A stretch of DNA of 64,000 nucleotides, taken from Sulfurovum sp. Lineage in GTDB: Bacteria; Campylobacterota; Campylobacteria; Campylobacterales; Sulfurovaceae. Made by a program: the position numbers and the translations under genes. The notes below the pieces were generated by a model. It was not told the DNA's origin. It did not search any database and saw nothing but the letters and a program-made list of their open reading frames with translations. Of this stretch, positions 2 to 5,073 are shown in pieces. Where the stretch lies: contig JAKIUE010000001.1 of assembly GCA_021647715.1 (NCBI GenBank), forward strand, positions 11,285 through 75,284, written 5' to 3'. The first letter of the stretch is position 1. Each line of letters begins with the position of its first letter.

Positions 2-1417
2 TTTGCCAAGATAGAAGATGCTGATGGTTTAGTACAACTCTACTTTAACCGTGATGACCTTGCTGATGGGTACTACAATGATGTGGTCAAAAAACTTTTT
101 GAAGTGGGTGATATCATTGAAGCAAAAGGTTATCCTTTCGTTACAGGTACAGGTGAACTTACTTTACATTGTCTAGAGGTAAATCTAGTAACTAAAGCCA
201 TCTTCCCATTACCTGAGAAATTTCATGGTATTCAAGACCAAGAAATAAAGTATAGACAACGTTATCTTGATATGATTATGGATGCAGAAGTTACCAAACG
301 TTTCAAGCTCCGATCACGTATAGTCTCAGGCATACGAAGATTTTTTGAAGACAATGGGTTCTTGGAAGTTGAAACCCCTATGATGCACCCCATTCCTGGT
401 GGAGCTAATGCCAAACCATTTGTTACGCATCATAATGCTTTGGGTGTGGACAGATACCTACGCATAGCACCAGAGCTTTACCTAAAACGTCTCATAGTGG
501 GTGGCATGGATGCAGTATTTGAGATAAACAGAAACTTCAGAAATGAAGGCATAGATGCCACACATAACCCTGAGTTTACTTCTATAGAGTTCTATTGGGC
601 ATACAAAACCTACATCGAGCTTATGGTAGTGACTGAAGAGTTGTTTGACTATCTTTTTGATACTTTAGAACTAGAAAGAACCCTCCCCTATGGAGACATG
701 AAGATAAACTTTACTACACCATTTGCAAAAGTACCATGGGTAGACAGCATCGTAGATGTCGGTGGCGTACCACGTGAGATAGCCACTGACAGAGATGCTG
801 GGCTTGCTTACCTAAAAGAGCGTAACCTAAAAGCAGACAAAAACTGGACACTAGGCTACGTACAAGCAGAACTTTTTGACGAGTTCGTAGAATCTAAACT
901 CATCAACCCTACTTTCATCACAGACTACCCAGTAGACATCTCTCCGCTTGCTAGAAGAAATGACGAAAATCCAGAAGTGACAGAAAGATTTGAACTTTTC
1001 ATGGCAGGCAAAGAAATAGCCAATGGGTTTTCTGAGCTCAACGACCCACTTGACCAATATGAAAGGTTTATGGGACAAGTAGATGCAAAAGAAGCCACAG
1101 GAGATGACGAAGCCATGCACATGGACACAGACTTTGTTAAAGCCCTAGGCTACGGCATGACACCCACAGCGGGTGAAGGCATAGGCATCGACCGATTAGT
1201 TATGATGCTCACCAACCAACACACTATCCGTGACGTACTTCTCTTCCCAGCGATGAGACCAGAAGTCATACAAGAAACACCAAAAGTAGATGCTGCTACA
1301 CAATGTAAAAAATGTGGACATGAGGTCGCAGAAGAACTCAAGCCTGCTAAAAAGGGTAAGGGTATGTTTTGTATGGATGTTGCGGCTTGTAAAGGGCGAG
1401 TTTCGGAAAGGGCATAA
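2..1417 (+). CDS. lysS: Lysine--tRNA ligase (class II), 5'-truncated by the window edge; carries a Cys-rich C-terminal extension
   Basis: The frame is open from position 2 ([14 protein letters not shown]...). Motifs [33 protein letters not shown] and [11 protein letters not shown] are present. Confidence 0.97.
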
Positions 1418-1558
1418 CCTTTCTTCTTTCTCTCACTAGGCTTATAAGTAAAATCTCTTCCTTCCTAAAATCAACCTCTTATCTATATTTTTGACATTTT
1501 TTGACTTATTTATGTAAAACTTTAACTAATAATAACATTTTATATCAAAGGGGAAAAG

Positions 1559-2125
1559 ATGAAATACACAATGATTTTTACCGCAAGTCTATTAAGTGTA
1601 AGCCTATTTACAGGTTGTGATCTAAATAAGACATCAGACAACGAAACAGATAGTTGTCAATCAATACAAACAGATATACATCACAAAAAAACCAACCCTC
1701 TTCAAAAGAATATTGCAGGAACATGGCTAGGTAATTGTCACTATGACGAAGATTATGATGAATCATACCAAGCAGAATTAATTTTTAATCTAGATTTATC
1801 ATTTAATTATATTGAAAAAACTTACCCTACAGAGGACTGTTTAGGAGATTCTTATAATGAAGGTAATAAAAAATTAGGTAGTTACAAAATAGGTGATATT
1901 ACAAGATCTGAAAATAATGAAAAAGCATATGAATTTGAAACACACTCCCTGATAAATTCGCAAATTGAGGATAAGTACTTCATGGTAAAAATAACCTCTT
2001 CAAGACTTATTTTTACAGATGAAAAAATAGACCAAAGTCAACCAAATGGAAAAACACTTCAAACACGGAATAACTACTTCAAAGAGGTACCCCGTATTAC
2101 GTTTACTAAAAAACACAATAAGTGA
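1559..2125 (+). CDS. Hypothetical lipoprotein
   Basis: Lipobox LFTG-C follows a hydrophobic N-terminus, with a GGGAA RBS upstream. No family recognised. Confidence 0.75.
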   Translation: MKYTMIFTASLLSVSLFTGCDLNKTSDNETDSCQSIQTDIHHKKTNPLQKNIAGTWLGNCHYDEDYDESYQAELIFNLDLSFNYIEKTYPTEDCLGDSYNEGNKKLGSYKIGDITRSENNEKAYEFETHSLINSQIEDKYFMVKITSSRLIFTDEKIDQSQPNGKTLQTRNNYFKEVPRITFTKKHNK

Positions 2126-2157
2126 GTAAGAATATTTTCATAAATAATATCACATAT

Positions 2158-3594
2158 CTAGTTTTGATAGAAATTAGGTAGATTTTTTATGTCTAGTGCT
2201 GAACCTTCTGAAAAATTGATATACGATGATACCTTGCTAATATCCCAATTATTCAATGGTTTATTGAAAGCTTCTGCATGGTAAAACATAAAAGAAAAAT
2301 TGATTACAGATGAAGTATCCCACTTTCCTATTGGTTGATTAAAAGAAATTGCATTAGTAAACATTTCAGACATATTAACCACTGATGAAGTGTTCCATTT
2401 TTCTATAGGGTGATTAAAGGCTGTTGCGAAACTGAACATAGCATTCATTTCTGTTACTGATGAAATATCCCACTTTCCAATTGGCTGGTTAAATGAGTCT
2501 GCATAAAAAAACATCTGGTTCATTTTTTTCACTGACGATGTATCCCAATTGCTAATATCTAAATTAAATTTTTGTAAAGTTTGTTTTTCAGAAAAACTTA
2601 AATCATTATACTCATAACCATAAAGATAAAATAAATCACTCATATCTGTAATTTTAGATGTATTTGCTGTGGTAAGTATATGTTCGTTTTTTTGACTTGG
2701 ATTTTTAGCCCAATTTTTAATATGCTGTACAAGCTCCTCTCTTATAAGTGTTTCATTGACAACATCTTCTACCACAATATTTCTACTAACTTCTTTTGCT
2801 TTATTTCCTGCTTCATCCTTAACATTATATGTAACAATATAACGTCCTGCAGTAGCAGTATCTACTAAATTAGTTATATGAATATTCTTTGTAATATTTC
2901 CATCAACCATATCAACGGCTGTAGCTCCTGCATCAGAATAAGTATCTCCCAAACTTAATCTTATCTTGCTTTTACCATGAAGTGTAATTATTGGCGAAAT
3001 AGTATCTATCTTCTTCTGAACTACCTCTTTTTTCTTTTGGGATACATCATCTCTTGATACTGAGGAATCACTTACATTTTTCACAGATAGCGAATAAAGG
3101 TGAGGGTTCCTCCAGGCTGTGTCCCCTCTCAATATAACATAAGTCAAGGGGCTTTTAGCTACAAAAGTAAAAACTTCTTCTATAGGTGTATCCCCTGTAA
3201 TACTTTTACTTTGCAGCATCTCATTTACACCATAAAACTTCGGGAGAGTATTAGATATTGCTATAATCGAAGCTCCATCAAAATTTTCATCACTTGAAGT
3301 ATCCGCACCAATTAATGTTGCTTTTACTCTATATGTTTCACCTTCTATAGTTTCAAAAGCCTGATAAATATAAGGATGCTTTTCATTACCTGTTAAGAGA
3401 TATAATTTATCTTTATAATTTCTTCGCATGTAGAAAGAACCTTTCCACTCCTGCTTATTGTCTTTGTCAATACTACTTCTAAATATACCATTTTCATTAT
3501 TTGCATTATAAATTAGTTCTACACCTTCACTTGCAAAAAGCATTGGCATTAAAAACAAAAATATTAAAAATCTTACGATTTGTAACTTTATCAT
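2158..3594 (-). CDS. Exported surface protein with a DUF5011/Ig-like domain and C-terminal DUF285 (BspA-like) repeats
   Basis: Signal peptide, then DTISPIITLHG...YIVTYNVKDEAGN (Ig-like), then about four 25-aa repeats of the form FNQPIGKWDISSVTEMNAMF. Confidence 0.85.
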   Translation of the reverse strand: MIKLQIVRFLIFLFLMPMLFASEGVELIYNANNENGIFRSSIDKDNKQEWKGSFYMRRNYKDKLYLLTGNEKHPYIYQAFETIEGETYRVKATLIGADTSSDENFDGASIIAISNTLPKFYGVNEMLQSKSITGDTPIEEVFTFVAKSPLTYVILRGDTAWRNPHLYSLSVKNVSDSSVSRDDVSQKKKEVVQKKIDTISPIITLHGKSKIRLSLGDTYSDAGATAVDMVDGNITKNIHITNLVDTATAGRYIVTYNVKDEAGNKAKEVSRNIVVEDVVNETLIREELVQHIKNWAKNPSQKNEHILTTANTSKITDMSDLFYLYGYEYNDLSFSEKQTLQKFNLDISNWDTSSVKKMNQMFFYADSFNQPIGKWDISSVTEMNAMFSFATAFNHPIEKWNTSSVVNMSEMFTNAISFNQPIGKWDTSSVINFSFMFYHAEAFNKPLNNWDISKVSSYINFSEGSALDIKNLPNFYQN

Positions 3595-3822
3595 TTACTT
3601 ATTCCTTTTAAATTTAACTCATATTAAATACCAAATTCTTCATTTAGTATAGATTATATTAACCCAATATTTATACTATATTATACAATATAAAGTCTTA
3701 CCTTTTTGTTAGTCATGTCTAAGTCTAGATTATTTATGGATTTTATGCGGTAATCAAAATAAAAGAGGAATTTTGATATAAATACACAATTTAAAAACTT
3801 CTTCCAACAGAAAAGGAATCTA

Positions 3823-5073
3823 ATGTCATATGAAATAAAGAGTTTTGACCCAGAGATATTTGCTGCCATTGAAAATGAAAGAGAGAGACAAACAGACCAT
3901 TTAGAGATGATTGCTTCTGAGAACTTTACCCTTCCTTCTGTAATGGAAGCGATGGGTTCAGTGTTTACAAACAAATATGCTGAAGGGTACCCCCATAAAC
4001 GTTACTATGGTGGCTGTGAATTTGCGGATGTGGTAGAGCAACTTGCCATAGATAGAGCTTGTGAACTCTTTGATTGCAAATTCGCCAATGTGCAACCTCA
4101 CTCAGGAAGTCAAGCCAATGGTGCTGTATATGCCGCACTTATTAAAGCTGGGGAGAAAATCTTAGGAATGGACTTAAGTCATGGTGGGCACTTAACACAT
4201 GGAAGTAAACCTAGTTTTTCTGGTAAGAACTACTCTTCATTTACCTATGGGGTAGAACTTGATGGTCGCATAAACTATGACGAAGTAATGAGAATAGCTA
4301 AAACTGTTAATCCAAAAATCATCGTATGTGGAGCTTCCGCATACGCTAGAGAAATAGACTTTAAAAAGTTTCGTGAAATTGCAGACGAAGTAGGAGCCAT
4401 CCTTTTTGCTGACATAGCTCACATCGCTGGTCTTGTCTGTGCAGGTGAACACCCTAGCCCATTCCCTTATGCGGACGTTGTAACTACAACGACACACAAA
4501 ACCCTAGCAGGACCTCGTGGTGGCATGATTATGACTAATGATGAAACGATAGCAAAGAAAATAAACTCTGCTATCTTCCCAGGACTTCAAGGTGGACCAC
4601 TCGTACACGTCATAGCTGCAAAAGCTGTTGGATTTAAATACAACCTGAGTGATGATTGGAAAATATATGCAAAACAAGTCAAAGCCAATGCGAGTAAACT
4701 TGCAGAAGTACTTGTAAACCGTGGATACGATGTAGTCTCAGGTGGAACAGATAACCACCTCATACTTGTTTCTTTTTTAAACAAAAGCTTCTCAGGAAAA
4801 GAGGCTGATACAGCATTAGGTAATGCGGGTATCACTGTAAACATGAACACAGTACCAGGTGAAACCAGAAGTCCATTTGTTACTTCTGGTGTACGTATAG
4901 GTTCCCCTGCCTTAACTTCCCGTGGTATGAAAGAAAAAGAGTTTGAAATCATCGCAAACAAAATAGCTGATATACTTGATAATATCAACGATTCTGACTT
5001 ACAAGTAAAAATAAAAGATGAAATGAAAATACTTGCTCAAAACTTTGTTATCTATGACAAATCAATCTATTAA
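3823..5073 (+). CDS. glyA: Serine hydroxymethyltransferase
   Basis: [16 protein letters not shown] and the PLP-lysine motif [14 protein letters not shown]. Confidence 0.98.

Follow-up and report, generated by a model that had tools for sequence, protein, structure and literature searches.

A conserved Cys4 module appended to the sole lysyl-tRNA synthetase of Sulfurovaceae

The lysS locus and its C-terminal extension

The window, the whole stretch of 64,000 nucleotides of Sulfurovum sp. DNA that was analysed, opens within lysS, the gene for lysyl-tRNA synthetase (LysRS), which was recovered from the genome as a full-length frame of 551 codons with a TTG start (Table 1). Although truncated at its 5′ end, the protein encoded in the window scored 605 bits with TIGR00499 (lysS_bact; cut-off 427.6), 614 bits with NF001756 and E=4.8e-88 with PF00152, values that place it in class II LysRS as defined by TIGR00499 or PF00152, the latter with PF01336. 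It is the sole LysRS of the genome, which yielded a single class II match; searches for the class I enzyme (PF01921) returned only partial or short matches inside the frames of other large class I synthetases, and control genomes behaved alike. Compared with bacterial LysS proteins at large, the body encoded in the window is a full, high-scoring member of the family that stands in the ancestral fur–lysS–glyA order.

In bacteria, class II LysRS is viewed as an enzyme with a fixed set of two domains. Both NCBIfam lysS models (TIGR00499 and NF001756) stop at residue 421 of the 471 in the window, that is, at nucleotide 1264 and the …FPAMRPE motif, and 50 residues remain. Here and in Sulfurovaceae relatives, the bacterial LysS plan is extended by a linker and by a Cys4 module of 32 residues. 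An earlier sequence-only reading of this DNA had reported about 50 extra residues past LLFPAMRPE that contain C-x2-C-x18-C-x5-C, and both the translation and the end of the NCBIfam matches confirm it. The same reading stated that class II LysRS normally ends soon after this motif. This holds for the lysS models and for the proteins of outgroups and tail-less relatives, which end 3–24 residues past FPAMRP, and it is the canonical C-terminus, a few residues past the motif, that the window LysRS lacks. The C-terminal ends of tail-less relatives are short, acidic (−2 to −6) and unrelated in sequence.

The 50 residues (nucleotides 1265–1414) divide into a 13-residue linker, the 32-residue module and five final residues. 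Across an alignment of 112 tails, the linker is 11–16 residues long with poorly conserved columns and a median charge of −1, and the module has a median net charge of +5; the commonest ending among tail homologues is …SERT or SERA. The count of 25 G against 5 C on the coding strand between 1351 and 1417, to which the sequence-only reading had drawn attention, is exact (A18, C5, G25 and T19, compared with a G/C ratio of 1.02 in the remainder of lysS). AAG and GGT, which encode Lys and Gly in the KKGKG loop, account for this excess, making any other explanation unnecessary.

Table 1 Features of the lysS locus and of related loci (window positions unless a contig or locus is named)
Feature	Position	Strand	Description
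lysS, 3′ part	2–1417	+	Frame +2; 471 codons plus TAA
Canonical class II LysRS body	2–1264	+	Partial OB-fold anticodon-binding domain and complete catalytic domain, ending …LLFPAMRPE
Linker	1265–1303	+	13 residues; variable in sequence and length; slightly acidic
Cys4 module	1304–1399	+	32 residues; C-x2-C-x18-C-x5-C-x2-R
Cys codons	1304–1306, 1313–1315, 1370–1372, 1388–1390	+	From translation
Basic hairpin loop	1340–1363	+	K-P-A-K-K-G-K-G, inside the Cys4 module
Final five residues and stop	1400–1417	+	VSERA and TAA; end of predicted helix (translation)
Insertion between lysS and glyA	1418–3822		About 2.4 kb
Open reading frame	1559–2125	+	188 residues; signal-peptide or lipobox-like start (by eye); no Pfam match
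Surface protein	2158–3594	−	478 residues; DUF285 and bacterial Ig-like (Pfam)
glyA	3823–5073		
Full-length lysS	L001:1261–2916		Recovered from the genome
cvpA-like gene and Fur-family regulator	L001:164–1229		Directly upstream of lysS
P0125 and P0126 loci	L033:5001–5150 and L034:3699–3848		Stand-alone relatives of the tail; metagenome contigs
lysS 3′ region of G117	L106:1600–1920		Early stop codon
tRNA cluster of G000	C133:20398–21298		Asp-Val-Glu-Lys-Asp-Val-Lys

Directly upstream of lysS lie a cvpA-like (Colicin_V) gene and a gene for a Fur-family regulator, the latter separated by 31 nt from the start of lysS. Adjacency of fur and lysS was found at all loci with enough upstream DNA, tail-bearing and tail-less, and at four of five loci from other families. 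The fur–lysS–glyA order is ancestral for the whole order and is kept in tail-less taxa, and the three genes are co-transcribed in Campylobacter jejuni. Downstream, the distance from lysS to glyA is only 2–65 nt in outgroups and many relatives, compared with the inserted segment seen here (Table 1). This spacer is a local insertion hotspot, and many members of the family carry inserts in it.

The hotspot bears on one of two origins that the sequence-only reading had proposed for the tail, replacement of the lysS 3′ end by recombination at such a site. In six tail-bearing relatives (L007, L011, L018, L021, L023 and L026), glyA begins 13–59 nt past the lysS stop; the tail therefore predates the insertion and does not depend on it, and the replacement scenario is not supported. 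Of the other proposal, an appended metal-binding or nucleic-acid-binding module, the addition of a Cys4 module to a class II LysRS is supported, whereas the binding of metal or nucleic acid is putative. No conserved neighbouring gene co-occurred with the tail among the loci compared.

Distribution, history and conservation of the tail

The tail was present in 93 of the 151 genomes of Sulfurovaceae, the family of the window, and in 63 of the 96 of high quality, covering 9 of 11 genera; complete single-contig genomes in the genus are among its bearers. By genus, the tail occurred in 0 of 16 genomes of g10, 0 of 4 of g7 and 3 of 17 of g3. Outside the family, it was found in none of the 276 genomes that represented the order's 25 other families, and a profile search of a phylum sample returned only two marginal partial matches (E 0.007–0.009), one of them with an internal stop. 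The tail is thus restricted to one bacterial family. A search with the tail alone retrieved 273 matching proteins (from NCBI, ENA, JGI and Logan), all of them LysRS of about 548–551 residues, assigned to Sulfurovum or Campylobacterota where the sources name an organism, and annotated only as ‘lysine--tRNA ligase’. In the family genomes, every match sits at the end of a LysRS frame of roughly 550 residues, and a search for paralogues in the window’s own genome found no second copy of the module.

These data also address whether the tail could be an artefact, produced by a frameshift, by loss of a stop codon, by misassembly or by a 3′ replacement peculiar to one strain. Only the local G excess and the inserted downstream genes speak for such an origin. 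Against it, the same frame and module recur in all of these genomes and proteins, complete single-contig genomes included, and alignment of LysS C-termini showed the cysteines to be conserved in every homologous tail examined. Because reading frame, cysteines and module are conserved across the whole family, frameshift, stop loss and strain-specific replacement are excluded, and we give an artefact practically no credence.

In a maximum-likelihood tree of the LysRS body (31 rows, midpoint-rooted), tail-less rows occupied four separate places among tail-bearing clades, beside the starred branches. The tree suggests that the simplest history would be a single acquisition near the family's base, followed by at least four losses, the number of losses being only a minimum, estimated without a test, given the midpoint rooting and the 31 rows. 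With at least four independent losses, the tail is dispensable; it is helpful yet non-essential. In the same tree, the LysRS of a genome assigned to family f9 (L036) branched within the Sulfurovaceae clade, where its sister was a g7 sequence that lacks the tail (L006, family f1; support 100/99); this reflects either a taxonomy boundary issue or transfer of lysS. In one tail-bearing genome (G117; Table 1), a TAG precedes the usual end by two codons (…ACKQRAS, stop, RT, stop). We considered whether this marks a tail loss under way and rejected the idea, as the stop comes merely two codons early and the whole Cys4 module is kept intact.

The four cysteines were invariant in the 120 listed of the 273 tail matches, as well as in 20 further genome loci from nine genera, in which the module was always 32 residues long. 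Twelve positions were invariant in the 112 non-redundant aligned tails (C14, K16, C17, E24, L25, K26, K29, G31, C36, D38, C42 and R45) and ten further positions were at least 90% conserved. The basic loop contributes to both classes, with K26, K29 and G31 invariant and P27, A28, K30, K32 and G33 conserved to at least 90%. Given the invariance of all four cysteines in 112 tails, the pattern is, as judged from the alignment, far beyond chance. At the codon level, 21 diverse loci gave pN 0.16 and pS 0.82 for the Cys4 module, with synonymous sites saturated, and pN 0.17 and pS 0.80 for the final 156 catalytic-core codons; across nine genera these loci contained no indels in the 32-residue module. 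Purifying selection on the tail is as strong as that on the catalytic core.

Predicted fold and relatives of the module

The four invariant putative metal ligands stand in two pairs on a predicted knuckle and hairpin scaffold, the arrangement of a Cys4 mini-domain. AlphaFold2, run on the 112-tail alignment, gave a mean pLDDT of 80 (56 for the first 10 linker residues), a confident value for so small a module, and predicted a knuckle bearing C14 and C17, a hairpin (25–27/34–36) ending in C36 and a helix (39–49) bearing C42. The predicted fold is treble-clef-like and not a four-stranded ribbon. The tail had been described as zinc-ribbon-like in the sequence-only reading, a label that survives only in part: the resemblance to a small Cys4 fold is approximate, but the predicted knuckle, β-hairpin and helix depart from a ribbon and the Pfam zinc-ribbon models gave no match. 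The same secondary structure of the tail recurred in a full-length AlphaFold2 model; owing to a shallow alignment this model is of low quality, with a mean pLDDT of 57 that drops below 50 in the catalytic core, and is unusable for placing the tail. A predicted complex of the LysRS body (residues 1–500) with the tail had an ipSAE of 0.00 in two runs for which controls were not run, and is neutral on docking.

Searches by sequence and by fold returned no close relative among described families. No Pfam family matched the window tail above noise, the 112 tails gave only scattered weak matches to many Cys-rich families, and the module lies outside all Pfam and NCBIfam models. A Foldseek search of the PDB returned no row at E≤0.001; the best E was 1.5, and the top rows were PHD, FYVE, GATA, LIM and RING fingers, all at E≥1.5. 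A wide fold search with VIA returned a single row, with Z 3.6. A sequence profile search of the PDB produced non-significant matches to knuckles in 1qyp_A, an RNA polymerase II chain (E=0.0099), in a ribosomal chain that we take to be eL42 (E=0.14) and in TopA (E=2.3).

PhnJ was the only recurring structural match and the best-controlled profile match. Chains D/H of 7z19, 7z18 and 7z17 appeared in the Foldseek PDB list with TM 0.52–0.57, which is weak for so small a domain; the sole VIA match was PhnJ (4xb6_D, residues 230–278), again weak with an rmsd of 6.8 over 44 residues, and a PhnJ cluster in the Atlas aligned with TM 0.59 and an rmsd of 1.7 over 35 residues. At the sequence level, 7 of the 112 tails touched Pfam PhnJ (PF06007) weakly (best E 0.03), and hhalign of the tail against a profile built from seven Campylobacterota PhnJ C-termini gave a weak match with all four cysteines in register (probability 65%, P=6.2e-5), a score reached by none of 150 shuffles in which the Cys columns were kept fixed. 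Like the PhnJ C-terminal domain (E. coli residues 235–281; PDB 4XB6 and 7Z19), the tail is a small Cys4 module added at a C-terminus. The cysteines of the two follow in the same order, and the two have in common C-[KR]-[KR]-C-G, a hydrophobic pair before the third cysteine and C-x-D-x3-C. They differ in spacing (x18 in the tail, x21 in PhnJ), the loop of the tail being three residues shorter and basic whereas that of PhnJ is acidic, and in host, the enzyme (C–P lyase) and chemistry of PhnJ being distinct from those of LysRS and cluster binding by the tail being putative. PhnJ itself was absent from the 12 family genomes searched.

The resemblance raises the question of which metal centre the module might hold. 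In E. coli PhnJ, Cys241/244/266/272 (C-x2-C-x21-C-x5-C) form a putative Fe4S4 site in a distinct C-terminal domain (PMC9947105, PMC7916636), and among synthetases there is a precedent in the Fe–S cluster of Thermotoga maritima TrpRS (PMC2954223). As a relative of PhnJ, the tail could then bind an Fe–S cluster or redox-active iron through its four cysteines, with the activity or stability of LysRS, or its synthesis of Ap4A, responding to oxygen, sulfide or iron. We regard this as unlikely, as the similarity scores are all weak, the zinc ribbons of topoisomerase score about equally by profile, and Zn and Fe–S sites are indistinguishable from sequence alone. Moreover, small Cys4 folds converge easily. 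The stronger form of the proposal, in which the tail and the PhnJ Fe4S4 domain are related and the tail carries a redox-active cluster through which the sole LysRS senses oxygen, sulfide or iron status, seems to us quite improbable. If true, it would tie translation or synthesis of the alarmone Ap4A to redox or iron status in sulfur oxidizers of vents and sulfidic habitats, and would define a new class of regulated bacterial synthetase together with a new small Fe–S domain family that is rarely free-standing.

The second weak resemblance was to the zinc ribbons of topoisomerase I. Aligned by hhalign to a profile of 87 Campylobacterales TopA ribbons, the tail gave a probability of 71% (P=3.7e-5) over 34 columns, with the four cysteines in register; Cys-fixed shuffles scored 13.5 on average (s.d. 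4.2) compared with 23.9 for the real tail, and 3 of 200 reached the real score. The nearest language-model clusters were all Zn_ribbon_Top1 small proteins, at 0.79–0.83, and the PDB profile search touched E. coli TopA ribbons (E about 2.3) over profile positions 13–44. Both modules are basic and share the pattern CxxCG…G-K-x-F-x-C-x5-C-K, and the TopA ribbon binds nucleic acid (ssDNA). However, where the topoisomerase ribbon has its final (fourth) strand, the predicted fold of the tail has a C-terminal helix. PF01396 (Zn_ribbon_Top1, gathering score 32 bits) gave no match, even at E≤10, to the window tail, to the 112 tails or in a six-frame search of the genome, in which the three ribbons of its own TopA scored 54–63 bits; solved TopA chains were missing both from the 50 Foldseek rows listed and from the VIA search. 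An identity as a topoisomerase-type ribbon was thus unconfirmed by Pfam, leaving a weak resemblance. As the TopA and PhnJ profiles align to each other over the first knuckle only, we file the tail under neither family.

The TopA matches, together with the strongly basic surface of the module, would fit a different ligand: single-stranded DNA or RNA in a moonlighting or autoregulatory role, a protein partner, or a site such as the ribosome or membrane. This is unlikely in our view. Beyond the silence of PF01396 and the helix in place of a fourth strand, the language-model scores lie under the 0.9 lead threshold, where shuffled sequences also lie, and no conserved gene accompanies the tail, the fur–lysS–glyA order being ancestral and found in tail-less taxa as well.

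Stand-alone relatives of the module are rare. When 1.84 billion representatives were searched exhaustively with the profile, five matches emerged, three of them LysRS fragments and two of them small proteins, P0125 (49 residues) and P0126 (55 residues), whose homology to the tail is clear (hhalign probability 97.9%, P=4.5e-13) and which keep its scaffold. A follow-up search with P0125 and P0126 retrieved only themselves, amounting to two stand-alone clusters among 5.8 billion. The P0125 gene belongs to an AT-rich stretch of genes without annotation and neighbours a phage-type integrase and an open reading frame, rich in repeats, that looks Sel1-like by eye; the P0126 gene is near a gene for an AAA_22 ATPase. 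The hairpin loop of both proteins is acidic or neutral, with a module charge of 0 to +1 compared with the LysRS median of +5. Since the basic loop is missing from the stand-alone homologues, the comparison suggests that the basic patch is the adaptation specific to LysRS.

These proteins could also mean that the tail has no catalytic role and began as a small stand-alone Cys4 gene that fused to lysS, perhaps by way of the lysS–glyA spacer, to be kept for folding, stability or dimer packing, or as a nearly neutral appendage. Consistent with this are the existence of homologues of 49–55 residues, one of them encoded next to an integrase within an island of uncharacterized genes, the repeated use of the spacer as an insertion site, and the loss of the tail at least four times without replacement. 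We nevertheless consider it rather unlikely. Transfer may have run in either direction, by fusion or by capture of a lysS fragment, and the two clusters, the only ones among 5.8 billion, may be donors or captured pieces; the conserved basic loop is absent from them. Core-level purifying selection, twelve invariant residues and freedom from indels across nine genera are not expected of a neutral appendage.

A candidate role in tRNA binding

From the conserved Cys4 module, the low-confidence linker, the basic loop specific to LysRS and the polyanionic substrate of the enzyme, we infer that the tail is a tethered, positively charged, metal-stabilized module that aids tRNA binding, a reading to which we assign a probability of about 0.42. 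The linker, placed past motif 3 and …FPAMRPE, would tether the module, presumably flexibly. The four invariant cysteines would most likely coordinate a single metal ion, by default taken to be Zn, and this metal would hold together the knuckle, the β-hairpin and the short helix. The KPAKKGKG hairpin loop, along with nearby Lys and Arg residues, makes the module strongly positive, which would allow it to bind the tRNA backbone without sequence specificity and so to raise the affinity of the enzyme for tRNA-Lys.

Appended tRNA-binding or Zn domains are well known on synthetases, and in eukaryotic LysRS a Lys-rich N-terminal extension aids tRNA binding. ProRS carries a C-terminal Zn-binding domain (PMC7960942). 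With these and with the TrpRS cluster the tail, whose function is putative, shares a design idea, a small extra terminal domain that helps substrate handling; it differs in having no sequence relation to them, and they sit at the other terminus or on another enzyme. Counting against a role in tRNA binding, the closest detectable look-alike, the C-terminal domain of PhnJ, is a putative Fe4S4 site and no nucleic-acid binder (PMC9947105), and the repeated losses within the family mark the tail as dispensable.

Literature searches for a Cys4 or zinc-ribbon C-terminal extension of class II LysRS, or for the LysRS of Sulfurovum, found nothing relevant. One whole family of environmentally important sulfur-oxidizing Campylobacterota has added a strongly conserved Cys4 module to its sole LysRS, with several sublineages that lost it again, and lineages with and without the tail offer a natural contrast in which to see how synthetases are tuned by small added domains. 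The tail may also define a new mini-domain family, possibly linked to the PhnJ Fe4S4 site or to the topoisomerase ribbons.

Comparison of tRNA-Lys(UUU) between six tail-bearing and five tail-less genomes revealed no difference that tracks the tail, and the tRNA of a tail-bearing genome (G001) was identical to that of a tail-less one (G079). The same tRNA-Lys occurring with and without the tail argues that the tail is no adaptation to an unusual tRNA. An unchanged tRNA-Lys fits a non-specific binder but is neutral, lending no positive support to the proposed role. In the G000 assembly, a tRNA cluster (Table 1) consists of a partly duplicated unit, and its two identical copies of tRNA-Lys(UUU) are the only tRNA-Lys genes that aragorn found among the 34 tRNAs of the assembly.
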